Under the pieces are notes generated by a model. That model was not told the origin of the DNA, made no database searches, and saw only the letters and a list, made by a program, of their open reading frames with translations. Position numbers and translations under genes: made by a program. Positions 1 through 48,304 of a stretch of 64,000 nt of DNA are shown piece after piece. Source of the stretch: an uncultured virus (IMG/VR IMGVR_UViG_3300029309_000019) (taxonomy: Duplodnaviria > Heunggongvirae > Uroviricota > Caudoviricetes). Every line of letters starts with the position of its first letter. The stretch's first letter is position 1. The DNA lies in IMG/VR virus record IMGVR_UViG_3300029309_000019, positions 1 through 64,000 of that record. One strand, 5' to 3'.

Positions 1-295
1 CATCTGCACACTTGATGATAGTGAGATGTTGCTTACCATACCTTCTAGTGTACTCCTCACCCAAAGCCATCATGTGTAGCCAAAGCCACGTGTAGTGTTG
101 GGTACTCTCTCTAGTCCATATAGTAGAGGGGTGGTTGTAGTGCGCCTTTTTGTAAGGCACATGTTCCCCTCTACCATAGTGGTGGTGTGCAGTGCATAAC
201 ATCTGCGCACACTCTAGTATCATCTTGACTTTATGTTTGTCATAGAAGTATGATGCACACACCTCTGGGTCTTCGTGTAAATAAAATATGTTCAT
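1..295 (-). CDS. Pyrimidine-dimer DNA glycosylase/endonuclease V-like family protein (runs off the window edge)
   Basis: Not in the ORF track. Hand translation: MNIFYLHEDPEVCASYFYDKHKVKMILECAQMLCTAH...YKKAHYNHPSTIWTRES...LGEEYTRRYGKQH. The MNIF..D..DKH.VKM.LE.AQML.T and H.NHP..W motifs are typical of this phage family. Confidence 0.75.
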   Translation of the reverse strand, partial: MNIFYLHEDPEVCASYFYDKHKVKMILECAQMLCTAHHHYGRGEHVPYKKAHYNHPSTIWTRESTQHYTWLWLHMMALGEEYTRRYGKQHLTIIKCAD

Positions 296-296
296 G

Positions 297-689
297 TTAA
301 TATAATTCTAGTTTACTGATATGTTCTACATGTTCATACCAATCGCCTTGTTCTGAATGTATTGCGCCATCTTCTCCCATGCAAACCATAAATGTTTTAG
401 AGTTTTCTCCCTGTCCTATTCCTTCGTTTAATTCAGAATAGTCAGATATAATTCTGTTCACTGCACTAACATCACGGTAAACATCATTCCATTTTAGGTG
501 GTCTCCAATCCATACAATCCAGTATTCTGTATTCTTTACTTTCATTCCAGAATCACTATACTCGATATACTCGTATGTCTTCTCATACCACTTAAAGCTA
601 TCTGTTAAATCGTGTTCCTCTAGAACTTTATCTATTACTTCTCGGTGGTCTTTTCTGACACCGAATATAACTTGACTTCTGTATCCCAT
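297..689 (-). CDS. Hypothetical early protein (130 aa)
   Basis: ORF in the tightly packed leftward early cluster. The MGYRS.V start and W...LKW motif recur in phage proteins. Confidence 0.8.
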   Translation of the reverse strand: MGYRSQVIFGVRKDHREVIDKVLEEHDLTDSFKWYEKTYEYIEYSDSGMKVKNTEYWIVWIGDHLKWNDVYRDVSAVNRIISDYSELNEGIGQGENSKTFMVCMGEDGAIHSEQGDWYEHVEHISKLELY

Positions 690-692
690 TGT

Positions 693-1010
693 TTAAAATA
701 TTTCCATCTTGGTTAATAATTCTTTTGTGTATTTAGCTACAAGTTTTTCTTTGTAGTTTTTAGCTAGGTCTTTTTGGTACTTAAGCTCCATTGATGAAGG
801 AGAACTAGAGGTAAAGTATTTACCTCTGTTTGCGACTAAATCTTTACTATAATCGCTAAAGTCATTGATGTAGTATATACGATTAGTACCATTTTCACCT
901 AAGTAGTTAGCTATTTCCTCGTGTATGAGAAACATTTCTTGTGCTTTTTGTTCAATGTAAGCATCAGCTTTTAGTTGTAATTGCTTGTCAATCTCGTTAG
1001 TTGTTTTCAT
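693..1010 (-). CDS. Hypothetical early protein (105 aa)
   Basis: ORF track; A-rich leader before the ATG; co-oriented and closely spaced. Confidence 0.8.
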   Translation of the reverse strand: MKTTNEIDKQLQLKADAYIEQKAQEMFLIHEEIANYLGENGTNRIYYINDFSDYSKDLVANRGKYFTSSSPSSMELKYQKDLAKNYKEKLVAKYTKELLTKMEIF

Positions 1011-1028
1011 TGTTATATTGTTTTTAGT

Positions 1029-1337
1029 TTATTGTCCATCATCTTCGTATTCTCCTAGCGCTATGTACTCTTTTCTTAGTTGCTCTAGTTGTTCGGATAC
1101 CTTTTCTTTGTTACCCTTGAGTCCAAAGTATTTCTTTGTATCGTTAAACTTCCAATGTCTATGTGGTTTCATTCCTGCTATAAATAGCTTGACATCTCTG
1201 ATAGATACCACTAGGTTATAGAAACCCTTGTGCATAGGGTTGCCATTCATAGATAGTATCGTATCATCTGAACAATCTGCAATGTATCTAGAGTTTTGCA
1301 CTGCATCTGTGTATGTTAATATCTTTTCTGTGTACAT
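1029..1337 (-). CDS. Hypothetical early protein (102 aa)
   Basis: ORF track; contains GMKPHRHWKFNDTKKYFGLKG. Confidence 0.8.
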   Translation of the reverse strand: MYTEKILTYTDAVQNSRYIADCSDDTILSMNGNPMHKGFYNLVVSIRDVKLFIAGMKPHRHWKFNDTKKYFGLKGNKEKVSEQLEQLRKEYIALGEYEDDGQ

Positions 1338-1339
1338 AG

Positions 1340-1540
1340 TTACGCTGATTTAATTGTTGTTAATAGGTTATCAATTCTTTTCTCTCTCTCTTCCATAGGC
1401 AAAGTATCCCAATCTTGTGGCTTGATTATGCCGTGCGTTGCGAATACAATACGCTCTCTGTTAGCTAGTTTCTGTTCTCTAGTTTCGCTAGCCATATCTG
1501 ACATAGCCATAAACATTTTCATAAAGTTAATCTGTTCCAT
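1340..1540 (-). CDS. Hypothetical early protein (66 aa)
   Basis: ORF track; PQDWDTLPMEEREKRI motif; A-rich leader. Confidence 0.8.
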   Translation of the reverse strand: MEQINFMKMFMAMSDMASETREQKLANRERIVFATHGIIKPQDWDTLPMEEREKRIDNLLTTIKSA

Positions 1541-1566
1541 TTTAGTTTAGTTTTAGTTGTTTATAA

Positions 1567-1761
1567 TTAAAGAGGTCTTACCTCTAGTTGTATTCTTATG
1601 TATTCATTTCCATTCTCATCTGTATCTACATCTGCTAGTGAGCAGTTCCATTGTCGTATGATGACAGGCATACTATCTAGCCACCTTGTATCTTTCTCAT
1701 ACGCAGGTACTTCAAAGCTACATAAATCATTTCCGTTGTAATCTTCTATAACTATCTTCAT
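1567..1761 (-). CDS. Hypothetical early protein (64 aa)
   Basis: ORF track; ATGA overlap with the upstream gene. Confidence 0.75.
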   Translation of the reverse strand: MKIVIEDYNGNDLCSFEVPAYEKDTRWLDSMPVIIRQWNCSLADVDTDENGNEYIRIQLEVRPL

Positions 1762-1982
1762 AATTCCATTGCGTAATCCATTATTCTATCGTGCATTATA
1801 TCTGTATCAAAGAAGGCAAAATAGAAATCTGTTATATCTCTTCCATTAGCCAAGGCTTTGGTAATTGTTACGATAGTTTCTGATGGTTGCTCCCAAGTAG
1901 AAGGAGCGTAATAAAAGTCATACTCTATCTCTAGTATGTTATCGTTTATCTCTTCCGAGTATGTTCCTGTATGTGTTCTCAT
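1758..1982 (-). CDS. Hypothetical acidic early protein (74 aa)
   Basis: ORF track; coupled to its neighbours. Confidence 0.75.
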   Translation of the reverse strand: MRTHTGTYSEEINDNILEIEYDFYYAPSTWEQPSETIVTITKALANGRDITDFYFAFFDTDIMHDRIMDYAMEL

Positions 1983-1983
1983 G

Positions 1984-2250
1984 TCAGTCGTTGTATTGAT
2001 TGTAATAGTTAGTAAAATGTTCTACGATTGCTCTGCCTTCTCTAGTATGAAAGCCGTAGCTATGTGTGTACATACCATCTATGCTTTCGTTACCTAGTAC
2101 AAACCTCATCAGTGCATCAGCACTAGGTAGGTCGTCCCATAGGTAATCTAGTTCGTTACACGCTTCTGCTATCGCTTGTGTGTTGTGTCTAGGTTCTTCT
2201 CCTAGTTCTTTGATGTAGTCCTCTACATCATACTTTGTTAACTCGTTCAT
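1984..2250 (-). CDS. Hypothetical early protein (88 aa, start revised to MNELTKYDV)
   Basis: The track start at 2322 overlaps a separate 36-aa ORF. The ATG at 2250 follows the CTAGATATG junction seen at other early genes. Confidence 0.7.
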   Translation of the reverse strand: MNELTKYDVEDYIKELGEEPRHNTQAIAEACNELDYLWDDLPSADALMRFVLGNESIDGMYTHSYGFHTREGRAIVEHFTNYYNQYND

Positions 2251-2252
2251 AT

Positions 2253-2363
2253 CTAGTTGTTTATCAAGTTGAAAATTATCATTGTTATCATTACGAGAAA
2301 CCCTAGGTACATCACTGCGCACTCTAGGATTTCTATTCTTGCTCTCTTCTTACTCTTCTTCAT
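2253..2363 (-). CDS. Single-TM micropeptide (36 aa)
   Basis: Hand translation MKKSKKRARIEILECAVMYLGFLVMITMIIFNLINN*. Basic N-terminus plus hydrophobic helix; ATGA overlap with the upstream ORF. Confidence 0.65.
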   Translation of the reverse strand: MKKSKKRARIEILECAVMYLGFLVMITMIIFNLINN

Positions 2364-2596
2364 AATACATATTCTTTAAAGAATCTATCTACTATTACCA
2401 TAGCATTCATTCTAGCGTAATACTCTTGTTGCGTTAGAGTACCCGTTCTTTGTGGGCTAGGTAGTGCTATCTCCTTCTCAAGTAGTTGCTTTGTACTACC
2501 CTCTAGGTGTTCGTACTTTATGGTATACTCATCATATCCCATTAGTATTCTTCTAGTAATTGTCTCAATCAATTCATTCTTTTTATTCCAATCCAT
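2360..2596 (-). CDS. Hypothetical early protein (78 aa)
   Basis: ORF track; fills the operon without gaps. Confidence 0.75.
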   Translation of the reverse strand: MDWNKKNELIETITRRILMGYDEYTIKYEHLEGSTKQLLEKEIALPSPQRTGTLTQQEYYARMNAMVIVDRFFKEYVL

Positions 2597-2600
2597 AATT

Positions 2601-2684
2601 CTATTTATCTTGGTTAATATATCTTAATAAAAATACTACGAAGTAGTATATGATTAGGTAAACTGCTAGGTCTATCGGTGTCAT
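2601..2684 (-). CDS. Single-TM micropeptide (27 aa)
   Basis: Hand translation MTPIDLAVYLIIYYFVVFLLRYINQDK*; exactly fills the gap between two ORFs. Confidence 0.6.
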   Translation of the reverse strand: MTPIDLAVYLIIYYFVVFLLRYINQDK

Positions 2685-2687
2685 ATC

Positions 2688-3041
2688 TTAGAAATTTATC
2701 CATTCGGCACCTACCTTTACTACCTTTACTTCCTCTTCAGTATACATCACTTCTTCTTGGTGAAAGTTTTTCTTGATGTAGTTGCATAAGCTAGATAGTT
2801 TATCGGGCTTTACACCATCTGTGATTAGTGTTAGTCGGTAGCTATCTTCTTCTACCATTACCCAAGCGTTTGGATGGATTTTATTACCCGTATCAGGATG
2901 TTTCCACCCACCTTGTATCTTTTGTAGTGAGTAGCCACCGAAGGTATCGCATACTAATTCTAGTACATTCTCTAGATGTACTTGTTCTGCATTGTCTGTG
3001 TGTTTGCCACTTATGGCAAAATAAATTTCATATCTTATCAT
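2688..3041 (-). CDS. DUF3574-like / phage SAM-lyase-like ferredoxin-fold protein
   Basis: Pattern F.GGYS.....GGW.......E.S..L.......L...IK..F.QE.V resembles DUF3574 and phage SAM lyases. Confidence 0.5.
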   Translation of the reverse strand: MIRYEIYFAISGKHTDNAEQVHLENVLELVCDTFGGYSLQKIQGGWKHPDTGNKIHPNAWVMVEEDSYRLTLITDGVKPDKLSSLCNYIKKNFHQEEVMYTEEEVKVVKVGAEWINF

Positions 3042-3052
3042 ATCTAGTTTTT

Positions 3053-3355
3053 TTAGTGTACAACAATATTTACTTCGTACCAGTTATCGCTATCGTATTG
3101 TATCTTGAATGTTATGTCAAACCAATGGTGTTCTTTATCCCATTCACAAGAGTACTCCTCTATGTAGGAAAATTTACTTATGGCATCTATCTTTTGCATT
3201 AGTTCTGAGAATGTAAGAGTCTTCCTTCTACTTGACCATTGAAGTCGTATGTCTTTATTAATGGAGGTATGGAAGAAGTCATCTAGCGTTAGGCGTAGTT
3301 CATCTTGTAGCATTCCATCGAGGTGTACTAATTTGTTCAGTATTGTCGGTTTCAT
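3053..3355 (-). CDS. Hypothetical early protein (100 aa)
   Basis: ORF track; preceded by CTAGATATG. Confidence 0.75.
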   Translation of the reverse strand: MKPTILNKLVHLDGMLQDELRLTLDDFFHTSINKDIRLQWSSRRKTLTFSELMQKIDAISKFSYIEEYSCEWDKEHHWFDITFKIQYDSDNWYEVNIVVH

Positions 3356-3357
3356 AT

Positions 3358-3447
3358 CTAGTATTTTTTCTTGTTAATTACTCGGTAGGCATTAGCTTTT
3401 GCTCTAGCTACCTCTCTCTTTACTTTAATAGTTCTAAATGTACTCAT
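3358..3447 (-). CDS. Basic micropeptide (29 aa)
   Basis: Hand translation MSTFRTIKVKREVARAKANAYRVINKKKY*; A-rich leader; stop is 2 nt from the next ATG. Confidence 0.55.
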   Translation of the reverse strand: MSTFRTIKVKREVARAKANAYRVINKKKY

Positions 3448-3466
3448 GATATAATTTTTTTAAGTT

Positions 3467-3598
3467 TTATTTAACTAATGTTATTTTATTGTCCTCAAAT
3501 TCTCTATATAGTATATCTGCAACACGATAAACCATATCTAAATCGCTACCTACTATATCTATTGCTAAATTATAGCAATACTTTTCTAATTCATTCAT
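3467..3598 (-). CDS. Small protein (43 aa) directly downstream of the hammerhead cleavage site
   Basis: Hand translation MNELEKYCYNLAIDIVGSDLDMVYRVADILYREFEDNKITLVK*; Bacteroidota-style A-rich leader (AAAACTAATAAAACT ATG). Confidence 0.6.
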   Translation of the reverse strand: MNELEKYCYNLAIDIVGSDLDMVYRVADILYREFEDNKITLVK

Positions 3599-3613
3599 AG
3601 TTTTATTAGTTTT

Positions 3614-3710
3614 AAGTTACAGACTAGGGGAATGTTACCTGTGTAGCTCTTATGTCTACCATATTCGTTATCCCCTAGTTTCGACCTATTAGGTCTCATC
3701 AGTATAACTC
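3614..3710 (-). ncRNA. Hammerhead ribozyme (type I topology)
   Basis: Minus strand reads GAGUUAUA-CUGAUGA-GACCU aau AGGUC-GAAA-CUAGGGGA...UCCCCUAG-UC^-UGUAACUU. Invariant core is complete, stem I is 8 bp (two G.U), stem II 5 bp, stem III 8 bp plus A-U. GUC cleavage triplet, predicted cut between 3622 and 3621. It is intergenic and on the sense strand. Confidence 0.92.
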
Positions 3711-3922
3711 TAGCAAGACACTTCTGTCTTCTCTACGGCAAACCTAGAGATGCTATAAGCATAAGCTAGGGAGTACTTGTGTTCCTCGATAGCTTCTTCT
3801 AGTTCCATAGCTTCTTGAAACTCTGGGTTTACTCGGTAGTTGTTGATTACTCTCTTGTTAACACCTAGTTGAATAGCTTCGTTTACTAGGTCTAAGTCGA
3901 ATGATAATACTGCATTTGTCAT
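3710..3922 (-). CDS. First early protein (70 aa), between the tRNA-like element and the hammerhead
   Basis: ORF track; its TAG stop abuts hammerhead stem I. Confidence 0.75.
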   Translation of the reverse strand: MTNAVLSFDLDLVNEAIQLGVNKRVINNYRVNPEFQEAMELEEAIEEHKYSLAYAYSISRFAVEKTEVSC

Positions 3923-3943
3923 GATTGAAAAATTTAAAGTTAG

Positions 3944-4041
3944 TGGTGGACAAGGGTATCGCTCCCTTCGGATATGCTAGTACGACATCTCTAGTAGAGA
4001 CCTAGCAACGGACAAGTTATCCGTAGTCATTCTAGTCCACC
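3944..4041 (-). ncRNA. tRNA-like element (acceptor plus T-arm mimic, non-canonical body)
   Basis: 7-bp acceptor-like stem GGUGGAC/GUCCACC with discriminator A. A 5-bp arm AAGGG-AGCGAUA-CCCUU with a 7-nt T-loop-like loop sits directly next to it. Internal hairpins ACGGAUA/UGUCCGU and UGCUAG/CUAGCA. No encoded CCA and no normal anticodon arm. Confidence 0.6.
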
Positions 4042-4515
4042 TAGAATACCTAGTCGATTTTTGGAGTGCTACCTTTGGCTAACCTAGTAGGAGCGTAGTT
4101 TGTCTGACCTAGCAGAACACCTAGAGGATACCCTCTAGTTACTTGCTGACAAGTCGCTCGTTCCTAGTGATACGGCCATTGGCATTTCACACAATGTATC
4201 GTTAATCGAGAACGCATTCGTATTTCTATCTAGTGTAGGTGGTCAAACCTAGTGTTATCTAGTAATACTCAGACGCTAATCTACATGCTCTCTAGTCGTT
4301 ATCTAGCCGATTGTCTCTCAACCTCGAGTGGTAACCTAGTAGCTAGGAGGTGGCACTCTTGATATGGTTCTAGCATATCTCTAGAGGTGGCTAGGGGTAT
4401 CCCTAGGGGTAATCAAGGTCTTCTAGATAGGACAGGAGGTACACTTGATTAGCGTGTTTTCAGTATGTCAGGTGCTAGTGTTAGTAGCTTGTCGGTTGCT
4501 CGTTTGCTGTCGACA
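4042..4515 (-). ncRNA. Candidate large structured non-coding RNA / early leader
   Basis: No ORF of 60 aa or more; GC higher than flanks. Nested stems: ACGCUAAUC(4455-4447)/GAUUAGCGU(4281-4273), CUUGAU/AUCAAG, GAAUGC/GUAUUC, UCGAUU/AAUCGA, GAGCG/CGCUC, UUGUC/GACAA, CUAGAGG/CCUCUAG. G.U pairs favour the minus strand. Confidence 0.55.
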
Positions 4516-4518
4516 CCT

Positions 4519-4550
4519 CAAACACACAAAAACAAATCGTAATTACCAAA
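4519..4550 (-). promoter_or_regulatory. Possible early promoter (variant Bacteroidota -33/-7)
   Basis: TTTG-N20-TGTGTTTG. Spacing matches the other promoters, but TG replaces the consensus TA. Confidence 0.4.
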
Positions 4551-4932
4551 TTACTAGAGAAGAAAGGGGGGTACACAAAACGATTTGAGGGGGTGGCCTA
4601 GGTTAAACTTTGTAATATACTAGATGGGGTGTAGGGGTTAGCACACAACAAAACACTTGCGCAAACCATCAGAAACCTATCGAGAGCCACAGATAGTTCA
4701 CTAGAACGCACTAGATGGGGGCTAGAGAGGGGGGAGGGGGTGGCCACGGAGCGCACGAGTTACCACTAGAGAAAGATAACTAGCGCTGACTAGATAAGAC
4801 CCCACCCCGTTGGGACATTCGGTTTGGGTATTGTAATGTAGGTGTACACACGCATGCATAAACCCCCACCCCAGAACTGTGTGCGCCAATACAGCAAGAC
4901 ACCACATACAGTAGTTAGGTATATATAGGCAT

Positions 4933-4972
4933 AAAAAAAGGCTAACTCACTGTGTTATAGTCAGTTAACCTT
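4933..4972 (-). terminator. Intrinsic terminator of the basic-microprotein operon
   Basis: Minus strand AAGGTTAACT...AGTTAGCCTT followed by a T-run, downstream of the last leftward ORF (5051). Confidence 0.65.
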
Positions 4973-4987
4973 ATTATTTAGTATTAT

Positions 4988-5053
4988 TAGTGTAATGTGG
5001 TTACACTTGTAGTGTAATGAGAGTACGCTTGTAGTGTAATGTGGTTACACTTA
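4988..5053. repeat. 3 x 22-bp tandem repeat of imperfect palindromes
   Basis: TAGTGTAATGTGGTTACACTTG / TAGTGTAATGAGAGTACGCTTG / TAGTGTAATGTGGTTACACTTA; core AGTGTAA-N5-TTACACT. Confidence 0.9.
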
Positions 5054-5299
5054 TGACTTCTTAGAACGTACTTTAGCTTTCTTTGTGTTAGCAACGAATT
5101 GTTTACCCTTGCTACCGCCTGCTTTTTTCTTTCTGGCAGTCTTAGCACGCTCTGCTTTTGACAAGCTCCTTGCTTTTGATAATGGCAAACATCGGTCAGG
5201 ATTCTTTTTGTTCTTGCTTGTACCGCACTCACCTTTGATTGAGCCGTCTGTACCTATTCTAACCCACCTTTGTTTGAGCCATTTCTTTAATTCACCCAT
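5051..5299 (-). CDS. Basic small protein (82 aa), DUF5872-like region family
   Basis: LKKW.KQ.W...G...CG......RCLP..KA..LS..ER..T..KK motif, common in aquatic phages. Confidence 0.8.
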   Translation of the reverse strand: MGELKKWLKQRWVRIGTDGSIKGECGTSKNKKNPDRCLPLSKARSLSKAERAKTARKKKAGGSKGKQFVANTKKAKVRSKKS

Positions 5300-5427
5300 T
5301 ATTTTCTACCCTTTTTCTTTTTACCACCGTTTCTCTTTAGTGCTCTAAAGTCTGCAGCTGTTATCTTATTAAATGGTGGTGCTGCTTTTGCGATGCGCAT
5401 CTGCGCTGGTGTCATTTTTTTTGCCAT
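5299..5427 (-). CDS. Basic microprotein (42 aa)
   Basis: Hand translation MAKKMTPAQMRIAKAAPPFNKITAADFRALKRNGGKKKKGRK*; TAATG coupling to the next gene. Confidence 0.75.
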   Translation of the reverse strand: MAKKMTPAQMRIAKAAPPFNKITAADFRALKRNGGKKKKGRK

Positions 5428-5429
5428 AA

Positions 5430-5501
5430 TTATTTTCTACCTTTCATACCCTTACTAATTCTAGTAGAGGTTTTTTTCTTTTTAAGTTTCTTTTTCATCA
5501 T
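5430..5501 (-). CDS. Lys-rich micropeptide (23 aa)
   Basis: MMKKKLKKKKTSTRISKGMKGRK*; ATGA overlap with the upstream ORF. Confidence 0.55.
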   Translation of the reverse strand: MMKKKLKKKKTSTRISKGMKGRK

Positions 5502-5623
5502 TTCTTTTTCTTTTTAGGTGTCATTGATTTTAACATTTTGTCAATACGCACTGCTTGTGATTTATGCATTGCAGATGCTTTTCTTAACTCTCCTGCAATT
5601 TTTCTTAGTTTAGATTTGTCCAT
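5498..5623 (-). CDS. Basic microprotein (41 aa)
   Basis: MDKSKLRKIAGELRKASAMHKSQAVRIDKMLKSMTPKKKKK*; TAATG coupling. Confidence 0.75.
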   Translation of the reverse strand: MDKSKLRKIAGELRKASAMHKSQAVRIDKMLKSMTPKKKKK

Positions 5624-5781
5624 TACTTTTTCTTTCTTTTAGAGCCCTTTGCATAGTTTGGGTCTTTGCAATACTTAGAAGCTGCCAAATTTGCATATGC
5701 GCTTGGATACTTATCAAACGTACGCTTAGCCCATGCTATACCAGCAGGACAGATTTTATTTGATTTCTTTTTCTTTGCCAT
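5623..5781 (-). CDS. Basic microprotein (52 aa) with KYPSAYAN motif
   Basis: MAKKKKSNKICPAGIAWAKRTFDKYPSAYANLAASKYCKDPNYAKGSKRKKK*; TAATG coupling on both sides. Confidence 0.8.
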   Translation of the reverse strand: MAKKKKSNKICPAGIAWAKRTFDKYPSAYANLAASKYCKDPNYAKGSKRKKK

Positions 5782-5969
5782 TATTTTTTCTTTTTAGCTT
5801 TTGGCTTAGCCTTAGCTTTCGCTGTCTTAGATAATTCATTAAAGTGATACAGTCTTACACTAGTTGCTGTATGTGATTTGTTAGTATGTAAAGTACCATT
5901 AGGCATTTTATGCATATTACCTTTCCACTCTTTACCATTTCTAGTGTAATGTTTTACTCCTTTTCCCAT
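5781..5969 (-). CDS. Basic small protein (62 aa)
   Basis: HY...G....G..HKMPNG.LH....H...S..L.H..ELS motif. Confidence 0.8.
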   Translation of the reverse strand: MGKGVKHYTRNGKEWKGNMHKMPNGTLHTNKSHTATSVRLYHFNELSKTAKAKAKPKAKKKK

Positions 5970-5984
5970 GATTATTTTTTTTTA

Positions 5985-6284
5985 TTAATATTTACCTTTA
6001 CGTCCTTTCGGAGATGATTTCTTAGAACCTCCAGAACCAGCCCATAAATTTTTACAAGCCCAATATCTAGCAGATAATTTATTCTTGGCAGAACCACATC
6101 GGTGTCTTGCTTTGAAAGATTTACGTGCAGCAGCGGAATAATTATGCCCGTATCCAGTAGCTCCGTAGTGAATAATTTTTTCTTGGCCATTAGCACAAGC
6201 CTTAACAACTCTCTTCTTCTTAGGATTAGGAGAGCGTCTTGGCTTGTTGCAGGCCATTTTACTTTTGTCTAACTTCTTAGCCAC
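5985..6284 (-). CDS. Basic small protein (~99 aa; probable GTG start)
   Basis: C-terminal part of the 121-aa track ORF: KK..VKAC..G.EKIIH.G..GY....ARKSF.ARH.C......SARYWAC..LW. The exact start is uncertain. Confidence 0.75.
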   Translation of the reverse strand: MAKKLDKSKMACNKPRRSPNPKKKRVVKACANGQEKIIHYGATGYGHNYSAAARKSFKARHRCGSAKNKLSARYWACKNLWAGSGGSKKSSPKGRKGKY

Positions 6285-6474
6285 AACCACAGTCCCCTCC
6301 GCCAGGGTTAGTTTTTTTATTAAAAACTTGTTGGTTGCCATGCATAACATTAATGTTGCGCATCATGTTAGTAGGTCTCGGTCTGTTACCTTGACCCATT
6401 TCACCTGGGCTAACCTTTACCATTCTTGGAGACGAAACAGTTCTTTTAGGAAGATTTTTATTTACAAATCCCAT
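6277..6474 (-). CDS. Hypothetical small protein (65 aa)
   Basis: ORF track; ends GGGDCGCG; fits the operon. Confidence 0.6.
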   Translation of the reverse strand: MGFVNKNLPKRTVSSPRMVKVSPGEMGQGNRPRPTNMMRNINVMHGNQQVFNKKTNPGGGDCGCG

Positions 6475-6476
6475 AA

Positions 6477-6542
6477 CTATTTCTTTTTCTTTTTCTTCTT
6501 CATAGGCTTTGCTTTCTTACCCATTTTCTTTTTACCGTACAT
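6477..6542 (-). CDS. Lys-rich micropeptide (MYGKKKMGKKAKPM followed by a poly-Lys tail)
   Basis: C-terminal end of track ORF 6477-6674; the plausible ATG lies just after the stop of 6547-6792. Confidence 0.55.
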   Translation of the reverse strand: MYGKKKMGKKAKPMKKKKKKK

Positions 6543-6546
6543 AATT

Positions 6547-6792
6547 TTATTTTTTAGTAGTTCTACGTTTGGAACCTTTCTTTCTAGACTTTTCTCGTCT
6601 ACTACGATTCTTGCTAGCTTTTTCAAAACCAACAATCTTTCCGCCTCTATGAGAGGCATCAAGTCCATCGCCATTACCGTACGTTCCTTTCTTACGGTTA
6701 TATTTATTTAGAGCAGCTCTTCTTTTCTTTGCTCTATCTGAGGCTTGGAATTTTTTATATTCCTTTTTATAATCTCTTTTTTTTTGTGGCAT
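6547..6792 (-). CDS. Small HNH-like endonuclease-family protein (81 aa)
   Basis: RDYKKEY...R..RN/LN...GDG.D.SH..G......S.NR pattern of small phage HNH-type proteins. Confidence 0.6.
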   Translation of the reverse strand: MPQKKRDYKKEYKKFQASDRAKKRRAALNKYNRKKGTYGNGDGLDASHRGGKIVGFEKASKNRSRREKSRKKGSKRRTTKK

Positions 6793-8300
6793 TATATATT
6801 CAAGTATCTTGATTTTTTACCGTGGTATACACTATTAAATGAAAACCTACAGTCTCCACACGCTTTTAAAGCCTCTTCATGAGAATCATACCATCCTATA
6901 AATTTTTTGTTATCTATTCGTGCGATATTTTTATCAACTAAATAACTAGGCAATCCTTGTTCAATTCCAGAAAATGTTTTACTTACACCTTCTAAATGAG
7001 CTGTAGGCCAAGAACTTTTTTTAACTTTAGATTCAGACAAGGGGTATCCGCATGAAAAATCAGGCACTGTTTTTGATAATGTTTTCTCTATAAAATTTAT
7101 ATCTGTATCCAAGATTGATGACTTTTTACTAATACCTTTAATCCATGAATTTGGAACTAAAACCTCAAATACACCATTTACAAATCCTATAATATGTAAG
7201 GTTTCTCCAAATGTCAAATACTGAGTCTTTAATATATCTCTTCCATGATGAACTAATGTTTTACCATCTAAAGAATTAAAATTCATTATATGCTCATTGT
7301 CGCAATAATTGAAATAAGCACCGTTAGCAAAATTAGAATTGTTTACGGTAGATGATACAATTCCAGAGTTTATTTTTTTAAAGTCTCCATCTGTGTTTTT
7401 AAAAGATGCCTGACTAAATGTAAAAATATTTTTAGCTTGATTTCTTGATAAAGGCTGAGGAGTTCCATCATATACAGTTCCAGTACCAGTTATTAATCCC
7501 AACCTGTTAGATTGCTCTTTTAAATTTTTATGAGATTTTGTTGAAAAATCATAACTATATAAAGTTGTAGCATGCAAATTACAAAACTGTGTTTTTTCTC
7601 CAAATGTAGCTCCAGACTCTATGTTAGATGAATATCCTTCATTGGCAAACATTGCACCATATACTCTTTCATTAGGAGCACCTTTCCATCCTATGGAGTT
7701 CCAACCACTACCGTTATCATCATATATACCAGGTGCAGAACCATATTTTGGAACAGAATCAGGTGGTATACAATAATCTGGTGCAGGGGCAAATAATCTA
7801 GAGTGTATGTCTTTATCTCCAACTTTATTTCCCCAAAGAGGAGGAACAATAGTTGTATTATCATATATAAAGAATCCTGTTTTCCCAGGATTAGTTTGCA
7901 TAGTACCAGTTACAGTTTCAACTCCAGAAACATTTCTACCAACACCTTGCATTTCATGTCTATAATTAAAAGACTTTGTGTCTGGTACTCTTAAACCAAA
8001 ACCTTCTGGAAAATCTCTAGTTTCAACAAAACCAGGTATATCTTGTATATTAGGACATCTGCCTTCAGATAAACCAGCCCAATAGTCAGCTAGTACATCT
8101 TCAAATGTTTTGGCTCCAAAATCAGAAGTAAAAAGTTCAGACTCTAAATAAACATGAGGAAGAACAGTTTTTAATAAAAGCTGTAAAGCTTTACTATTCT
8201 TTTTAGAACATATATACCATTTTTTAGATAACCCTACACGAGGAAAACCTTGCTTGCCATTTGGTTTTAGGCCTGGGTTAAAATTTTTATTATTTGCCAT
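6792..8300 (-). CDS. Hypothetical protein (502 aa)
   Basis: Long ORF, first gene of the leftward operon; no family recognised. Confidence 0.85.
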   Translation of the reverse strand: MANNKNFNPGLKPNGKQGFPRVGLSKKWYICSKKNSKALQLLLKTVLPHVYLESELFTSDFGAKTFEDVLADYWAGLSEGRCPNIQDIPGFVETRDFPEGFGLRVPDTKSFNYRHEMQGVGRNVSGVETVTGTMQTNPGKTGFFIYDNTTIVPPLWGNKVGDKDIHSRLFAPAPDYCIPPDSVPKYGSAPGIYDDNGSGWNSIGWKGAPNERVYGAMFANEGYSSNIESGATFGEKTQFCNLHATTLYSYDFSTKSHKNLKEQSNRLGLITGTGTVYDGTPQPLSRNQAKNIFTFSQASFKNTDGDFKKINSGIVSSTVNNSNFANGAYFNYCDNEHIMNFNSLDGKTLVHHGRDILKTQYLTFGETLHIIGFVNGVFEVLVPNSWIKGISKKSSILDTDINFIEKTLSKTVPDFSCGYPLSESKVKKSSWPTAHLEGVSKTFSGIEQGLPSYLVDKNIARIDNKKFIGWYDSHEEALKACGDCRFSFNSVYHGKKSRYLNI

Positions 8301-8304
8301 AATA

Positions 8305-8336
8305 CAAATATACTAAAATAAATGGTTTCTAACAAA
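8305..8336 (-). promoter_or_regulatory. Bacteroidota primary-sigma promoter (leftward)
   Basis: TTTG-N20-TATATTTG, ending 4 nt before the ATG at 8300. Confidence 0.75.
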
Positions 8337-8345
8337 GATATAGCA

Positions 8346-8406
8346 TAGACATAATAGTCTATGTTGATAGACATTTTTGTCCTACAATAAAATAAATAAA
8401 AAAAAA
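8346..8406. repeat. Iteron-like pair GAC-N6-GTC (22-bp spacing) plus A-rich tract
   Basis: TAGACATAATAGTCTA and TAGACATTTTTGTCCTA, then ACAATAAAATAAATAAAAAAAA; matches the element at 60045-60104. Confidence 0.65.
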
Positions 8407-8438
8407 TTTGTTTTTAAGTGTAATAATTATTACATTTG
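8407..8438 (+). promoter_or_regulatory. Bacteroidota primary-sigma promoter (rightward)
   Basis: TTTG-N20-TACATTTG upstream of the ATG at 8454. Confidence 0.75.
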
Positions 8439-8453
8439 TAAAAATTTAATTTT

Positions 8454-8657
8454 ATGAAAACACCAAACGAAATCACAAACCCAAGTCTTATTGACATAAA
8501 CGACAAGCAAAGAAAACAAGAGCAAAAAGCAGTAAGAGTAACTGCTATGCAAATGGCTCTTCAAGTTACACCAGACCCACAAACTGTTTGTGTAATGGCT
8601 AATAATATTTATCAATTTTTAGAATATGGGACAGCAACAAAAAAAGCTACCGAGTAA
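8454..8657 (+). CDS. Hypothetical protein (67 aa)
   Basis: ORF track; first gene after the promoter. Confidence 0.75.
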   Translation: MKTPNEITNPSLIDINDKQRKQEQKAVRVTAMQMALQVTPDPQTVCVMANNIYQFLEYGTATKKATE

Positions 8658-8865
8658 TTGGAAAATGTTTTTAAACTTTGTAAAAGCTGTTTTTAAACAC
8701 GCTTCTACAGGTGCTAAAAAAGTAAGTAAAGGAGAGTATGCAGAAAGATTATCTACATGCTATACTTGTAAACATAGGATAGTAAATAGATGTGGAGCTT
8801 GCGGATGTTTTATAGAAACAAAAGCAGCTTGGAAAACATCTAGTTGTCCTCATAAGTATTGGTAA
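8626..8865 (+). CDS. DUF6171-like Cys-rich metal-binding protein
   Basis: Y.ERL..C..C......C..CGCF...K......CP...W motif. Confidence 0.7.
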   Translation: MGQQQKKLPSNWKMFLNFVKAVFKHASTGAKKVSKGEYAERLSTCYTCKHRIVNRCGACGCFIETKAAWKTSSCPHKYW

Positions 8866-9161
8866 TGAGCATTGAGCAAGAAATAGCAAACGCAATAGCT
8901 TTTTTAAACAGCTTATCAAAAGATTATAAAGACTTTGATTTTATATTTTCATTTAACTACAAAGATAAAGATTCAGAAAATAGAGGCGGAACTCTTATGA
9001 CTGAAATGGAAATAGAAATTTTTGAAAATGTTAGAGATGAACAATTAGATGTTTATGCTGACATCAAGCATGGTATAGACTTAAATGAGACTGTTGAAAG
9101 AGTCAAAAAAATATTGAATGAAAAAAATTCTGATAAAGACGGGGGAAAAAAGACTGACTGA
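8865..9161 (+). CDS. Hypothetical protein (~98 aa)
   Basis: ORF track; TAATG coupling suggests a start at 8865. Confidence 0.7.
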   Translation: MSIEQEIANAIAFLNSLSKDYKDFDFIFSFNYKDKDSENRGGTLMTEMEIEIFENVRDEQLDVYADIKHGIDLNETVERVKKILNEKNSDKDGGKKTD

Positions 9162-9567
9162 AAAAATGTCTCCCATCTATATGGAGAGTTTATTTGTTCA
9201 AAGATATGTTAGCGCAACAGACGTGATATTTAAAATTCACAGTCCATGTGCTATGCATTTATTAGAATGGATTCTTAATGAAATGAATGAATGGAATCTA
9301 TTTACAATGACAAGAGCAGATAAAAAAAGATTTGCCGTTGAGTGTGCAATAAAAGGCGGTAAAGATTATAGTGTATCATCTGTTGATAAAGGATTAAAAG
9401 CATTAAAAGACGCTGAAATAATAATATCAACTAATGAACATATAGACTCTGTAAAAACTAGAACGAGCACTTACTATGTAAACCCTCACTATTATTGGAA
9501 AAGCGCAAGCAAAGTTAAAAGAGAGGAGCTTGTAAGAGCAATGGAATCTGAGCGTTATGAAAGTTGA
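9118..9567 (+). CDS. RepL-like winged-helix DNA-binding protein
   Basis: S.SSV.KGLK.L....II...YYVNP.YYWK matches the RepL family C-terminal signature. Confidence 0.6.
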   Translation: MKKILIKTGEKRLTEKMSPIYMESLFVQRYVSATDVIFKIHSPCAMHLLEWILNEMNEWNLFTMTRADKKRFAVECAIKGGKDYSVSSVDKGLKALKDAEIIISTNEHIDSVKTRTSTYYVNPHYYWKSASKVKREELVRAMESERYES

Positions 9568-9769
9568 AGTAGATAATACGTCATATAAAGCTCAAGAAGT
9601 AAAAGAGCACCACTTAGAAATAGCTGCTCATATAAAAGCTTTATCATCTATGTTAAAAATAAAACATGATGAAGAAATAGTAAGTGTAGAGTTTCATAGT
9701 GAAGATACAATATATATAATTATAGATAATGGAATTAAACGGAATAATAAGAAAAATAACCCTGGGTGA
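9557..9769 (+). CDS. Hypothetical protein (70 aa)
   Basis: ORF track; overlapping coupled neighbours. Confidence 0.65.
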   Translation: MKVEVDNTSYKAQEVKEHHLEIAAHIKALSSMLKIKHDEEIVSVEFHSEDTIYIIIDNGIKRNNKKNNPG

Positions 9770-10010
9770 TATAAAAGAGGGTATAACATACAAAAAAGGA
9801 CAAAAAATGAGAGTCCCAAATTCAAACGCATATTTAGAAATAATAGATATTACTAGGGATGATGAGTATTTTAATTATTACAACAAAACAAGATTTAATG
9901 TTTTTGTAAAACCTAGTAATGAAGATTATACAAGGCTATGGAAATCTTTTATAGACACGCCTGTATCAATAGAGTATGATATTAAAATTGAAGATTATGA
10001 GACCTATTAG
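9729..10010 (+). CDS. Conserved phage protein (93 aa)
   Basis: IIRKI..G..K....Y..GQ...LWK.F...PVSIEYD motif; upstream of the co-chaperonin. Confidence 0.8.
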   Translation: MELNGIIRKITLGDIKEGITYKKGQKMRVPNSNAYLEIIDITRDDEYFNYYNKTRFNVFVKPSNEDYTRLWKSFIDTPVSIEYDIKIEDYETY

Positions 10011-10581
10011 AAATGTAGTATTTACAAAAAGAGAAAAAAAAGAAAATGATGAAATTAAAATTGGAGAAGAAACATTACGTGTTGACACGTCTTGGTCTCC
10101 AATGCATTGGGTGAATCAAAGGGCCGAAGTATATTCTGTACCAGAAGTTTTAGATTCTTGGATGAATACAGAAGTTGAAGTTCAACCAGGAGACTTTGTT
10201 TACACTCATCATTTTATAAATGACGCAAACAATGCTATAGAGTTTGAAGATTTAGAAATTGCATACATGCCTTATAACCAGCTATATGCTAGAGTAAGAG
10301 ACGGTGAGGTATATATGTTAAATGATTTTGTTTTAGTGGAGCCTGTAAGAGAAACTGAAGATGAAATAAAAACTGAATCTGGACTATATTTAAAAACCAA
10401 TACTGAAATAAAAAGAAACATAGGAATATTAAAATATGTAAATTCTAATACAAAACATATAGGGGCTAAAGTTGGCGATAAGGTTTGTTTTGAAAAAGAC
10501 GCTGATTATGAAATGGATATAGAGGGAGAAAAGTTGTTTAGAATGAAAAATAGTAACTTAATATATGTCATCGAAGAGTAA
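9997..10581 (+). CDS. groES: Tandem GroES/Cpn10-like co-chaperonin
   Basis: Two Cpn10-like units: MRPIRN...VQPGDFVY and LNDFVLVEP...KTESGLYL...KVGDKV.F......IEGEK..RM....LI.V. Confidence 0.75.
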   Translation: MRPIRNVVFTKREKKENDEIKIGEETLRVDTSWSPMHWVNQRAEVYSVPEVLDSWMNTEVEVQPGDFVYTHHFINDANNAIEFEDLEIAYMPYNQLYARVRDGEVYMLNDFVLVEPVRETEDEIKTESGLYLKTNTEIKRNIGILKYVNSNTKHIGAKVGDKVCFEKDADYEMDIEGEKLFRMKNSNLIYVIEE

Positions 10582-10867
10582 ACATGAGGATAAACTGCAG
10601 AAGTTAATTAATGCAGGTAAAGAAGCTTTTGAATTATTATTGGCAGAAGTAAAAAAACCACTAGACCCTGAGCTACAAGATGACAGGGCTAGAAATGCAA
10701 TGAAAGCTAAGAAAGAATGTTTTATGGATGCTAAAGAAATAATTACAGAAGTAGAAAAACTTGAAGCATATCTCAATGGAGAAGAGGCTCCCCCAGACAC
10801 GGAGGAATCAGAAGCTGCATTTAAAAAAGGGTATGCAGAAAAGTTTGCAAAAAAAAGAGGAGCATAG
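10565..10867 (+). CDS. Putative terminase small subunit / packaging-associated helical protein
   Basis: Helical 100-aa protein (D.RARNA..AKK....DA.EI), last + strand gene before TerL. Assignment is by position. Confidence 0.45.
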   Translation: MSSKSKHEDKLQKLINAGKEAFELLLAEVKKPLDPELQDDRARNAMKAKKECFMDAKEIITEVEKLEAYLNGEEAPPDTEESEAAFKKGYAEKFAKKRGA

Positions 10868-10877
10868 CTCCTCTTTT
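10853..10877. terminator. Bidirectional intrinsic terminator
   Basis: AAAAGAGGAGC-ATA-GCTCCTCTTTT between convergent genes. Confidence 0.85.
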
Positions 10878-10896
10878 AATTTATACACATAAATTA

Positions 10897-11982
10897 TTAT
10901 GTAGTAAGCGCTATTTCAGTTAAAGCACCAAGTTCAGCAGCAGTGTGGTTAACAACTAAATAGTCATCTCCACCTTTTCCTAATCCACGCTTAAGTTTGA
11001 TAACTGTATCGTTAGCCTGAACAGTACCCCAACCAAAAGTAGTTGTGGCAGCCATTTCATCAGCGCTAGCAATATTTTTAAGTCTAACTATAGCAGATGC
11101 ACTTTGGTCAGGGAAAGCAACAAGTTGTCCATTAACACATAAAGATAATGCATTTACTAAAGCACCCTTACTACCAACATGGTTAGTAAAAGATGTCATA
11201 AGACCATCTAAAGATGTTTCTACTTCTAATACATCAACAAATGGAGAGTCAAGTCCCGCAAAGTTTGTATTTGAAGCATCATACCATACAGCCCAGTCAT
11301 CAGCAGAAGCGATTGATGAGCCAGATGGAACAGCTAAACCTTCATAAGTTAAGATAACTCTATCCAAGTTAATCATTAAATTTACTTCAGATATAGTTGT
11401 AGCATCATATAAAACACCATTTTTTCTGTTTACCTCAACAGCTCTTAATTGACCAGAAGCTGAAGAGAATCCAAAACCGTCAGCAACGTTTACACATGGC
11501 TCAACAGTAATTATTTCAATAGGTGTTCCGCTTCCTAAGCTTGGGTCATGATAAAGAAGTTTACCTTGAACTCTTACTAAGTCTAAAGTTAAACCAGCTC
11601 CATTAGTAGTAATATCTTGATTAGTAGGAGTAGAAAAGTCAGCTTCTGAATCATGTAAAAACAAACCAGTTGCACCTGTTGCTCTAACTTTAAATATTTT
11701 ACCAGGAGTATAATCAGCTCCTGCAATATCAAAGTCTCCAACAGCGTCTCCAACTTTACCAATTCTTACATACTCACCACTAGTTATTCCATGTGCTGAA
11801 CCAGTAGTTACAGCATCAGTAGCAGCAGTAGCTGTAGTAACATCTATGCCAGTATCAGTTTCTTTGTTAGTACCGTAAATTATGTGCTCGGTACTTAGCA
11901 CCATTGGTTGTGATTCGGCTAATGTAGTACCGAACTCTTGATTTCCGTACCTTAACACATTGGCCACAATTAAATTTGCCAT
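10897..11982 (-). CDS. Acidic Gly/Ala/Thr-rich protein (361 aa), probable virion accessory protein
   Basis: Long ORF with structural-protein composition; AHGITSGEYVRI motif; opposite strand with its own promoter and terminator. Confidence 0.8.
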   Translation of the reverse strand: MANLIVANVLRYGNQEFGTTLAESQPMVLSTEHIIYGTNKETDTGIDVTTATAATDAVTTGSAHGITSGEYVRIGKVGDAVGDFDIAGADYTPGKIFKVRATGATGLFLHDSEADFSTPTNQDITTNGAGLTLDLVRVQGKLLYHDPSLGSGTPIEIITVEPCVNVADGFGFSSASGQLRAVEVNRKNGVLYDATTISEVNLMINLDRVILTYEGLAVPSGSSIASADDWAVWYDASNTNFAGLDSPFVDVLEVETSLDGLMTSFTNHVGSKGALVNALSLCVNGQLVAFPDQSASAIVRLKNIASADEMAATTTFGWGTVQANDTVIKLKRGLGKGGDDYLVVNHTAAELGALTEIALTT

Positions 11983-12012
11983 TTTTTTTAGTATTGGTTA
12001 ATAAATAGATAA

Positions 12013-12044
12013 GTTGCAAATATACAATAAATTTTGTATTTTTG
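12013..12044. promoter_or_regulatory. Overlapping divergent promoters
   Basis: Minus strand TATATTTG (12024-12017) toward 11982; plus strand GTTG-N20-TATTTTTG (12013-12044) toward TerL. Confidence 0.6.
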
Positions 12045-12071
12045 CTAGTTGACAAGTAATTATTATTAGAT

Positions 12072-16371: not shown

Positions 16372-16381
16372 TTTTTTTTAA

Positions 16382-16389
16382 TACATTTG
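16382..16389 (+). promoter_or_regulatory. -7 promoter element upstream of the scaffold gene
   Basis: TACATTTG in the intergenic gap; no clear -33 element. Confidence 0.5.
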
Positions 16390-16415
16390 CAATTAGGTTT
16401 AATTTAATTTAAGAT

Positions 16416-17534: not shown

Positions 17535-17556
17535 TAATATTTTAAATTTATAAAAA

Positions 17557-35699: not shown

Positions 35700-36341
35700 A
35701 TGCCCATAGAATTATCAGAAGACCAAAATATTGTATTTGTAGATGGTGAATTTTATATAAGAGATTATATATTGCCGCCAGAGACAGTAGCTTTTCATGA
35801 AAAAACAAATAGATGGACAACATTTTATTCTTTTTTCCCAGAAGCTTTTTGTCAAATTGGATTAGAAGTAGCTTCATTTTTGAGAGGCGAACTATTTATA
35901 CATGATAGAGATGAATTAAACTACAATAGATTTGCAGCTGAAAATCCTTTGGGTCAGCCAGTTTTTTATTATTACCCATCTGAGGTTACTGTAATAAGTA
36001 ATGCTAGCCCTTCTGAAAACAAGATATATCAATCATTATCAGAGGAATCTAGCGATATATGGGAGGTAGAATACATGGAAACTGAAAATGGTCAGATAAC
36101 AAGAATACCTGAAAATGCCTTTACAAAAGGAGCTATTTATTCTTTTCAACCAGGACACGGAACAAAAGAAAATGTACATTATGCCAACATCCCTATGGAT
36201 GAAAATAGTCCAGGAGGAATAGTTAACGGTAGTAGAATGAGAGATTATTCTTTGATAACTAAATTTAGTTATTTTAAAAATAAACTTACAAAACTTTTTG
36301 CCGTAAACTTTAACGTAACAAAGTCTTATAGAAACGATTAA
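35700..36341 (+). CDS. Separated C-terminal part of the tail muzzle protein (213 aa)
   Basis: T.AF.E..NRWTTFYSF.PE...F..G.L..H, N..PS..K....LS.E, KE...YA.I, G..MR....LFAV motifs that I recall as the contiguous C-terminus of this family. Confidence 0.65.
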   Translation: MPIELSEDQNIVFVDGEFYIRDYILPPETVAFHEKTNRWTTFYSFFPEAFCQIGLEVASFLRGELFIHDRDELNYNRFAAENPLGQPVFYYYPSEVTVISNASPSENKIYQSLSEESSDIWEVEYMETENGQITRIPENAFTKGAIYSFQPGHGTKENVHYANIPMDENSPGGIVNGSRMRDYSLITKFSYFKNKLTKLFAVNFNVTKSYRND

Positions 36342-36373
36342 TTTGTTTCACAGACTTAATTTCATTATATTTG
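36342..36373 (+). promoter_or_regulatory. Bacteroidota primary-sigma promoter
   Basis: TTTG-N20-TATATTTG upstream of the ATG at 36393. Confidence 0.8.
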
Positions 36374-36392
36374 TAATTATTTAAGATAGCAG

Positions 36393-37286: not shown

Positions 37287-37298
37287 ATATAAATAAAA

Positions 37299-38687: not shown

Positions 38688-38693
38688 CAAACA

Positions 38694-48286: not shown

Positions 48287-48304
48287 TAACTTAAATTAAA
48301 AAAA

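Follow-up and report, generated by a model that had tools for sequence, protein, structure and literature searches.

How is a phage transcript that opens with several hundred nucleotides of non-coding RNA divided into a leader, a single-gene message and a multi-gene message? This question is raised by a locus of the uncultured virus recorded in IMG/VR as IMGVR_UViG_3300029309_000019, of which positions 1-64000 (hereafter the window) of the 64,677-nt record were analysed. All features of the module are read on the minus strand, where a terminator hairpin, ~380 nt of non-coding DNA, a promoter-like site, a leader devoid of open reading frames (ORFs), a tRNA-like element, a gene for a 70-aa orphan protein (ORF70), a type I hammerhead and the next ORF follow each other in that order. 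A preliminary description of this DNA had named five of these elements, from the promoter to the hammerhead, and all five were found in the order given there on reading the sequence, folding it and comparing it with a close relative. The explanation preferred here, which we consider probable though only a little beyond an even chance, is that the locus is the head of a transcription unit with a released leader, a tRNA mimic, ORF70 and a hammerhead, carried by a phage that is proposed to be marine and to have a flavobacteria-type host among the Bacteroidota.

In the proposed mechanism, the host RNA polymerase would start at about 4514-4512 from a host-type promoter, and the first ~470 nt of the transcript would form a non-coding, highly self-complementary leader. 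The cloverleaf that follows would be recognised by the host enzymes that trim tRNAs, with RNase P cutting at 4042/4041 and an RNase Z-type enzyme cutting after A3944. These cuts would free the leader and leave the ORF70 message with its own 21-nt leader. The type I hammerhead behind ORF70 would then cut itself between 3622 and 3621. Hammerhead cleavage chemistry leaves a 2',3'-cyclic phosphate and a 5'-OH; the ORF70 message would end in a folded ribozyme carrying the former, and the downstream multi-gene message would start with the latter and a 23-nt leader. The freed leader would accumulate, as supported by contigs from RNA libraries, and the products would presumably be stabilised. The RNA ends expected in the preliminary description coincide with the cut sites predicted from the anatomy of the hammerhead (3622/3621) and from the tRNA-like fold (4042/4041 and ~3944/3943).

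Promoter and leader RNA

The promoter-like site (4519-4550, minus strand) is of the Bacteroidota type and consists of TTTG at 4550-4547, a 20-nt spacer and TGTGTTTG at 4526-4519. The housekeeping promoter consensus of Bacteroidota comprises TTTG at -33 and TAnnTTTG at -7, spaced by 19-21 nt. The motif TTTG-N18-22-TRTRTTTG occurs six times in the window against 0.66 expected, a number reached by none of 100 shuffles, and four of the five other sites lie on the coding strand directly upstream of long ORFs (8300, 20064, 36393 and 55575). Given this enrichment and placement, the phage appears to use host-type promoters. The strict consensus was found nine times in the window (2.97 expected), the studied site not being among these matches. 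The site is identical in the relative apart from one spacer base, and an RNA-library contig with 100% identity to the window terminates at 4512, 7 nt past the -7 motif. The upstream genes have a host-type promoter of their own at 8336-8305, and the status of first and early transcript that had been ascribed to this RNA is at best tentative.

The ORF-free leader (~470 nt; 4042-4514, minus strand) is a candidate stable non-coding RNA that contains 19 CTAG words and begins with a conserved 5' hairpin (4514-4491). No minus-strand ORF of at least 40 aa is present between 3923 and 4597. The fold of the 575 nt at 4514-3940 is more stable than those of shuffled sequences (z = -2.88; none of 100 shuffles equal), a score inflated by the self-complementarity of the CTAG words. 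When all 4227 families of Rfam 15 were searched, no match reached the gathering score anywhere in the window, the leader included. At E values up to 10, the region 3300-5000 gave just two weak hammerhead matches and two at chance level. One of the latter, to RF01889 (lincRNA-p21_1; plus strand, 4406-4606; 16.6 bits against a gathering score of 75, E = 3.9), was the only match of the leader, and the leader of the relative is likewise covered by no Rfam match. At E values up to 5, positions 1-3400 gave snoRNA-type noise only.

Part of the region 3400-5000 was found in 20 public sequencing runs, six of which are RNA libraries, and RNA contigs of four metatranscriptome runs from four studies (X15, X16, X17 and X19) were placed on positions 2600-5600. 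Seven of the eight contig pieces, with depths of 2.7-9.9 and contributions from all four runs, fall inside 4053-4512. They include 4201-4512 from X15 (100% identical, depth 9.9), 4181-4332 and 4328-4470 from X16, 4173-4474 from X17, and 4053-4258 and 4242-4454 from X19. The eighth piece, from X15, lies outside the leader at 5298-5441 (depth 2.2). The covered stretch thus lies between the predicted start (4512) and the tRNA-like element, which begins at 4041, and the stable non-coding RNA posited in the preliminary description gains support from the fact that, of 3 kb, only 4053-4512 is covered, one piece apart. No DNA of the region is less conserved than the leader, so that the RNA signal cannot be put down to shared conservation, and the recurrence of the same 460 nt in four libraries speaks against carry-over of DNA. 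Being assemblies that carry neither strand, true termini nor level, the contigs support a stable leader RNA rather than prove it; such an RNA likely exists. The absence of contig pieces from ORF70, the hammerhead (3600-3730) and the block upstream of the promoter (4553-4935) in these four runs was given no weight.

When sequence variants in the RNA contigs were mapped to the predicted leader fold, three of nine substitutions fell at paired bases, one of them preserving a G-U pair and two breaking the pair. Two 1-nt deletions (4133 and 4127) lie on opposite strands of one hairpin stem, and the changes are too few to test the structure. A 25-mer of the leader was found in none of ~186,000 prokaryote genomes (GTDB species) and in no other viral contig; its occurrence in one Tara metagenome contig, identical to the window where aligned, is not independent.

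Replacement of the leader in a close relative

Contig IMGVR_UViG_3300030116_003984 (G001, with loci L003, L082 and L087), whose large terminase subunit (TerL) is 93% identical, is the sole relative in IMG/VR that contains this region. It was also the only source, beside the window itself, in which a sequence pattern for the tRNA-like element and a 26-mer at the transcription start were found. Positions 4935-4490, with the promoter and ~25 nt at the start of the transcript, are ~90% identical in the two phages. The sequence at ~4488-4050 is unalignable and occupies ~440 nt in the window and ~290 nt in the relative, where the leader is 314 nt overall. Both leader bodies are free of ORFs in all six frames. 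Conservation resumes at 4048-3615, including the tRNA-like element, ORF70 and the hammerhead, and the ORFs beyond the hammerhead differ again. As judged by alignment, these close phages carry unrelated non-coding sequence in the slot that the 5' hairpin and the tRNA-like element enclose.

tRNA-like element

The minimum-energy fold (RNAfold) of positions 3945-4041, minus strand, is a tRNA-like cloverleaf with a four-way junction (z = -2.81). The 7-bp acceptor stem (4041-4035 with 3951-3945) is directly abutted by a 5-bp T arm (3968-3964 with 3956-3952) with the 7-nt loop AGCGAUA. Arm 1 (4024-4020 with 4012-4008) likewise has 5 bp and a 7-nt loop, UAACUUG. Arm 2 is long and in two parts, with an outer stem formed by 4007-4002 and 3980-3975, an inner stem formed by 4001-3996 and 3992-3987, and a conserved 3' internal loop.

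In the comparison with the relative (locus L082), 46 of 46 pair cells were kept as standard pairs and eight pairs were changed on both sides. This pair conservation was matched by just one of 500 shuffles, and structures slid by 1-3 columns paired at 37-50%. All 12 pairs of the acceptor and T stems are retained, with one compensatory change in the T stem, and the inner stem of arm 2 keeps its pairing in the relative with a different sequence.

An acceptor stem stacked on a T arm is the part of a tRNA that is read by RNase P and RNase Z. The element is interpreted as a putative processing signal for these two enzymes, with cuts predicted from the fold at 4042/4041 and ~3944/3943. Its 3' end lies 21 nt before the ATG of ORF70, similar to the spacing found after hammerheads, and the sequence AACUU(U)AAA is common to the short leaders that follow the tRNA-like element and the hammerhead. 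By any test applied, the element is not a tRNA. A check of 10 related loci with a tRNA finder also returned no tRNA genes.

ORF70 and the hammerhead

ORF70 (3710-3922, minus strand) starts 21 nt past the predicted 3' end of the tRNA-like element. Compared with the relative, 13 synonymous and five non-synonymous codon differences were counted among its 71 codons, and this synonymous excess indicates a real gene. Seven protein clusters were found for ORF70, all of them at least 80% identical. The product belongs to no Pfam family, has a weak PHROG match to the small terminase subunit (E = 8e-4), and gave a single-sequence AlphaFold model (pLDDT 56.5) that is too poor for a structure search. The end of the gene holds a hairpin, AAGACA-GAAG-UGUCUU (3715-3730, minus strand), which aligns with the 5' hairpin of the RAGATH-1 model and has a stem that is unchanged in the relative.

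The type I hammerhead (3615-3709, minus strand) has a perfect core and three helices, and begins at 3709, one base past the ORF70 stop codon (3712-3710). Stem I is open, with 6-7 bp (3709-3703 with 3621-3615). It is followed by the core sequence CUGAUGA (3702-3696), a 5-bp stem II (3695-3691 with 3687-3683), GAA at 3682-3680 and a 9-bp stem III (3679-3671 with 3631-3623) closed by a 39-nt insertion at 3670-3632; CUGAUGA and GAA are both unchanged in the relative. The cleavage triplet is GUC (G3624-U3623-C3622), and A3679 pairs with U3623, corresponding to A15.1-U16.1. With C17 at 3622, the cut is predicted between C3622 and U3621. The minimum-energy structure given by RNAfold is exactly this three-way junction (z = -3.87). 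The relative retains pairing in 41 of 42 cells; one pair shows a compensatory change, two changes are one-sided, and stem III is longer by a paired 2-nt insertion. On its sequence, this is a real hammerhead, and its intact core suggests that it would cleave itself at 3622/3621. The RNA downstream of the cut would begin with an A/U-rich 23-nt leader (3599-3621, minus strand), followed by the ATG of the ORF at 3598-3467.

A second CTGATGA...CGAAA sequence, at 2112-2085 (minus strand) inside the ORF at 2322-1984, was rejected, as its stem II is unpaired and it has no Rfam support; it was taken as probably a chance occurrence, though only 0.08 matches are expected.

Ribozymes at matching positions in other phages

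A search of IMG/VR with a pattern for the core and stem II gave 10 stretches, nine of them in other contigs, and each of these is placed after a stop codon and ahead of the next ATG. Over whole contigs, the core pattern was counted 9, 5, 8, 3 and 2 times, compared with 0-2 for a reversed control, and the copies are mostly clustered and on one strand. Rfam gave 16 sub-threshold matches to hammerhead families in these loci, and sub-threshold matches of the RAGATH-1 type were found in L086, L090, L091 and Flavobacterium phage elemoE. When type I hammerheads from 12 sources were parsed by script, an ORF start was found 8-39 nt past the cut in 22 of 25. For the 22 of 25 that have an ORF start within 100 nt, the median distance from cut to ORF is 23.5 nt, the distance in the window being 23 nt.

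In two other phages, a hammerhead occupies the place where leader and first gene meet. In locus L090, a perfect TTTG-N21-TATATTTG promoter precedes ~290 nt of ORF-free leader, and a type II hammerhead (1680-1750) stands directly before the first ORF. In the cultured phage vB_FspP_elemoE_6-9C (elemoE; NC_055854.1), whose TerL is 36% identical to that of the window phage, the ORF-free leader is ~180 nt long and follows a host-type promoter; it leads to a type III hammerhead (RF00008, 36.3 bits, E = 3e-5) with its end 14 nt from gp59, and another hammerhead lies ahead of gp66. The position of the ribozymes in L090 and elemoE suggests that a processing element at this junction is recurrent, and lends support to the view that the tRNA-like element is equivalent to a ribozyme. 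Like elemoE, the window phage has an ORF-free leader followed by a putative processing element; as read from their sequences, it and its relative would use a tRNA mimic at the first junction instead of a ribozyme.

Further features of these loci were recorded. Two pistol ribozymes of L090 score above the Rfam threshold (4280-4359 and 4737-4782; 40.7 and 40.6 vs 34.5 bits) and share one early operon with the well-formed type II hammerhead and at least five type I hammerheads. The elemoE hammerheads (locus L103, NC_055854.1 14000-19000; record positions 18097-18153 and ~16305-16385) are unannotated, and the record places small opposite-strand ORFs, gp65 and gp56-58, over the hammerheads and the leader. 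Hammerhead arrays were seen within a few kb of contig ends in G004 (L091; 1125-4519, four copies) and G005 (L083; 4454-8690, nine copies). G004 is bounded by direct terminal repeats, so that its array is at the genome end.

CTAG words and the upstream block

Within 4001-4500 there are 22 copies of CTAG; each 500 nt of 1-4000 contains 4-11, and the mean for 12001-64000 is 1.7 per 500 nt. The early ORFs have 11.4 CTAG per kb, against 2.9-3.8 elsewhere, with enrichment in both possible codon phases, and CTA accounts for 52% of their Leu codons vs 13% in the late genes. On the transcribed strand of 1-4512, ACTAGA occurs 22 times and TCTAGT once, a bias in orientation that is reversed upstream of the promoter. 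Of 24 CUAG words, 17 are placed in helices by the predicted fold. The relative shares a CTAG- and CTA-rich domain of ~5.5 kb (48% vs 21%; G001 41000-46500) in which the early ORFs are different, and its own leader contains a single CTAG. The hammerhead-bearing loci L083, L089, L091 and L092 have at most a few CTAG, with none in 5 kb of L091. In both phages the CTAG-rich domain (~5 kb; 1-4800 in the window) coincides with the transcription unit behind the leader. The starts of two early ORFs, at 3041 and 3355, lie in the context AAAAAA(U)ACUAGAU-AUG, and the leader has CUAGAUA three times without AUG.

The conserved non-coding block upstream of the promoter (4553-4935, minus strand) is ~90% identical in L082. 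It contains six TCTAGT words (minus strand) together with complementary G-runs and C-runs, namely two GGGGTGGGG-type runs and two complementary GGCCACCCCC runs between which long-range pairing is possible. The block may be a regulatory or origin-like DNA element. An ORF at 4907-4722, open in both phages, has three non-synonymous vs one synonymous change as counted by eye, and was taken as non-coding. A hairpin followed by seven U residues at ~4972-4934 (minus strand) is kept in the relative and probably terminates the upstream genes; this hairpin is weakly similar to the model of the Bacteroidetes sRNA FopS (21.4 bits, E = 2.2).

Alternative explanations

Several observations weigh against the scheme set out above. 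The -7 box of the promoter has G where the Bacteroides consensus TAnnTTTG has A. The assembled contigs contain no RNA end, strand or cleavage product, and RNA libraries can contain DNA. The leader body is not conserved, which argues against a single large structure that is conserved. For the tRNA-like element, ARAGORN found no tRNA genes in the window and the Rfam tRNA family had no match at E up to 10 in 3300-5000. The element is without a D arm (10 unpaired nt are in its place) and without CCA (the tail is ACUAAC), the loop of arm 1 has A at the U33 position, and the T loop AGCGAUA departs from the consensus UUCRANY. A covariance model built on the element found only its two training sequences among 90 sources (896 kb). 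Moreover, the covariation comes from one relative, and six of the eight double changes are in one helix of CTAG palindromes, in which a register shift may partly mimic compensation; the remaining two belong to arm 1 and to the T stem. The hammerhead scores below the Rfam thresholds (RF03152, 23.9 vs 56.3 bits; RF00008 Hammerhead_3, 23.0 vs 48.5 bits; RF00163 unlisted), likely due to the 39-nt insertion that closes stem III, and its two-sequence pair statistics are no better than those of shuffles (247 of 500 equal).

If the leader is released as proposed, it may be a passive, dispensable structured spacer or a trans-acting RNA, and these roles are given about equal weight. One elaboration of the latter, which we regard as rather unlikely, is that the leader is a free phage RNA that acts in trans from a swappable cassette slot, that ACUAG(A/G) marks the whole early unit in both phages and is read by a motif-specific RNA-binding or RNA-cutting factor, and that the leader would be the decoy or competitor of this factor. 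The slot would be bounded by the conserved 5' hairpin and a tRNA-like 3' release signal, and can be likened to anti-defence loci. T4 RegB, which reads GGAG, offers an analogy for the factor. Equally doubtful in our judgement is a leader that works in cis only, as a 5' untranslated spacer for stabilisation or anti-termination, with a tRNA-like fold that is protective and remains uncut and an RNA signal that reflects slow decay. Free exchange of the leader body between phages with 93% identical TerL is as expected if its sequence is unimportant, conservation is confined to the first ~25 nt (the 5' hairpin) and the tRNA-like end, and no contig crosses the tRNA-like element or ends at 4042. However, the self-cleaving ribozyme at the same junction in two other phages would detach the leader, the RNA contigs stop at or before 4053 in four of four runs and never enter ORF70, and the ATG follows the tRNA-like element at 21 nt, a distance in keeping with the leaders that ribozymes leave behind.

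It is improbable that the region is mainly a DNA element, such as an origin or an array for a phage protein that binds CTAG-core words, with the RNA features secondary. Such an element would fit the six TCTAGT words upstream of the promoter and the 11 ACTAGA/ACTAGG words downstream, whose orientation flips at the promoter, as well as the conservation of the upstream 380 nt despite its being non-coding, and its G-runs and C-runs could form cruciforms. Yet the relative keeps the upstream words with only one CTAG in its 314-nt leader, so that the downstream array is dispensable; the leader is what the RNA libraries show; and the CTAG enrichment spans ~4-5 kb of early coding sequence in both phages and extends to codon use, which exceeds a local binding array. 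More improbable still is that only the hammerhead is functional, the tRNA-like fold being a by-product of CTAG palindromes and the contigs deriving from DNA or from another organism. CTAG is self-complementary and most CUAG words fall in predicted helices (17 of 24, as above), the z-scores are modest (-2.8 to -2.9), there is one relative, and the contigs lack strand and termini. Against this, compensatory changes are also present in the T arm and arm 1, both of which are without CTAG, contaminating DNA would not select the same 460 nt out of 3 kb in all four runs of four studies, and the leader 25-mer is absent from the prokaryote genomes and other viral contigs searched.

Phage and host setting

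The IMG/VR record is classed as linear and 100% complete (CheckV), and near-identical DNA is present in marine metagenome runs. It encodes TerL, a portal protein, a primase-helicase and exonucleases, and two giant ORFs of 2506 aa (27250-34770) and 3189 aa (38694-48263) are almost without a family match. The closest TerL proteins of cultured phages are those of Flavobacterium phages vB_FspP_elemo (36%) and Cellulophaga phages (29-33%), and the resemblance to TerL of crAss-type phages is only distant. A blastn search of GenBank phages with positions 3300-5300 gave no match.

No RNA-repair or RNA-end-healing genes were found among 41 ORFs in a Pfam scan, in which just a weak metallophosphoesterase match was seen, in the 455-aa ORF at 55575-56942. 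A Cpn10 (GroES-like) domain is present in the 201-aa ORF at 9976-10581. Reading TAG as a sense codon (Q) gave only scattered short frames in 3900-4950 and none across the leader, and was rejected; table 11 leaves the late genes uninterrupted, in ORFs of up to 3189 aa. GATC, CCGG and CGCG are absent from the window, where ~154, 21 and 15 copies, respectively, are expected from the trinucleotide content, and also from 38 kb of the relative (G001 1-19000 and 36000-55027). This looks like restriction-site avoidance.

Relation to known systems and implications

In the MALAT1/mascRNA system, the 3' end of a long non-coding RNA is made by an RNase P cut at the tRNA-like structure that follows. That system is eukaryotic and nuclear, whereas the element proposed here would also set the 5' end of a protein-coding message. 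The early multi-gene RNA of T7 is cut between genes into stable units by host RNase III at double-stranded sites, and in the proposed scheme a self-cleaving RNA and a tRNA mimic would stand in place of RNase III. RAGATH-1 (RF03152) resembles the end of the module in that a small hairpin precedes a type I hammerhead, and the whole model (1-77) aligns to 3730-3618; the window differs in its long stem III insertion and in the score given above, well below the gathering threshold.

The preliminary description knew of no account of such a combination, a claim that does not hold as it stands, as parts of it have precedents. Plant-mitochondrial t-elements, described by Forner et al. 2007 (PMC1920247), are tRNA-like structures without a decoding role that lie at the 5' or 3' ends of messages and are regarded as RNase P and/or RNase Z signals. 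They are similar to the tRNA-like element in shape and position; they are of an organelle and not of a phage, and are unrelated to it in sequence. Hammerheads at phage genes are likewise on record. In the relevant sections of Perreault et al. 2011 (PMC3088659), multiple hammerheads flank prophage genes and are proposed to cut long phage transcripts into messages the length of single genes or operons. The same sections report that haloviruses HF1 and HF2 have a hammerhead that precedes the first gene of a polycistronic early transcript by 13 nt and whose cut lies no more than 3 nt from a mapped 5' end (PMC3088659). The present hammerhead shares with these cases its position at a gene boundary on a phage transcript. 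Unlike those laid out there (PMC3088659), it is the one hammerhead of its phage, has a 39-nt insertion in stem III, and is accompanied by a tRNA-like first junction and by a ~470-nt leader that stands alone in RNA libraries. In a passage of a 2019 review, the purpose of such hammerheads is described as still undefined (PMC6765202).

A literature search that lacked most subscription journals turned up no connection between hammerheads and phages of flavobacteria, and no account of a phage operon in which a tRNA mimic serves as punctuation. New here are the support that RNA libraries lend to a free leader, the exchange of that leader in the manner of a cassette, and a cultured model. As cultured elemoE, with the host Flavobacterium sp. 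BAL314, has the same layout, the idea is testable at the bench.

The role of phage and bacterial hammerheads has been open since the catalogue of 2011, and the locus described here aligns a self-cleaving RNA, a tRNA mimic and a candidate released leader on one transcript. Should tRNA mimic and ribozymes be interchangeable, phages could arrive at messages of defined end chemistry and with a 20-25-nt leader by at least two routes. A leader that acts in trans would represent a new class of abundant marine phage RNA.

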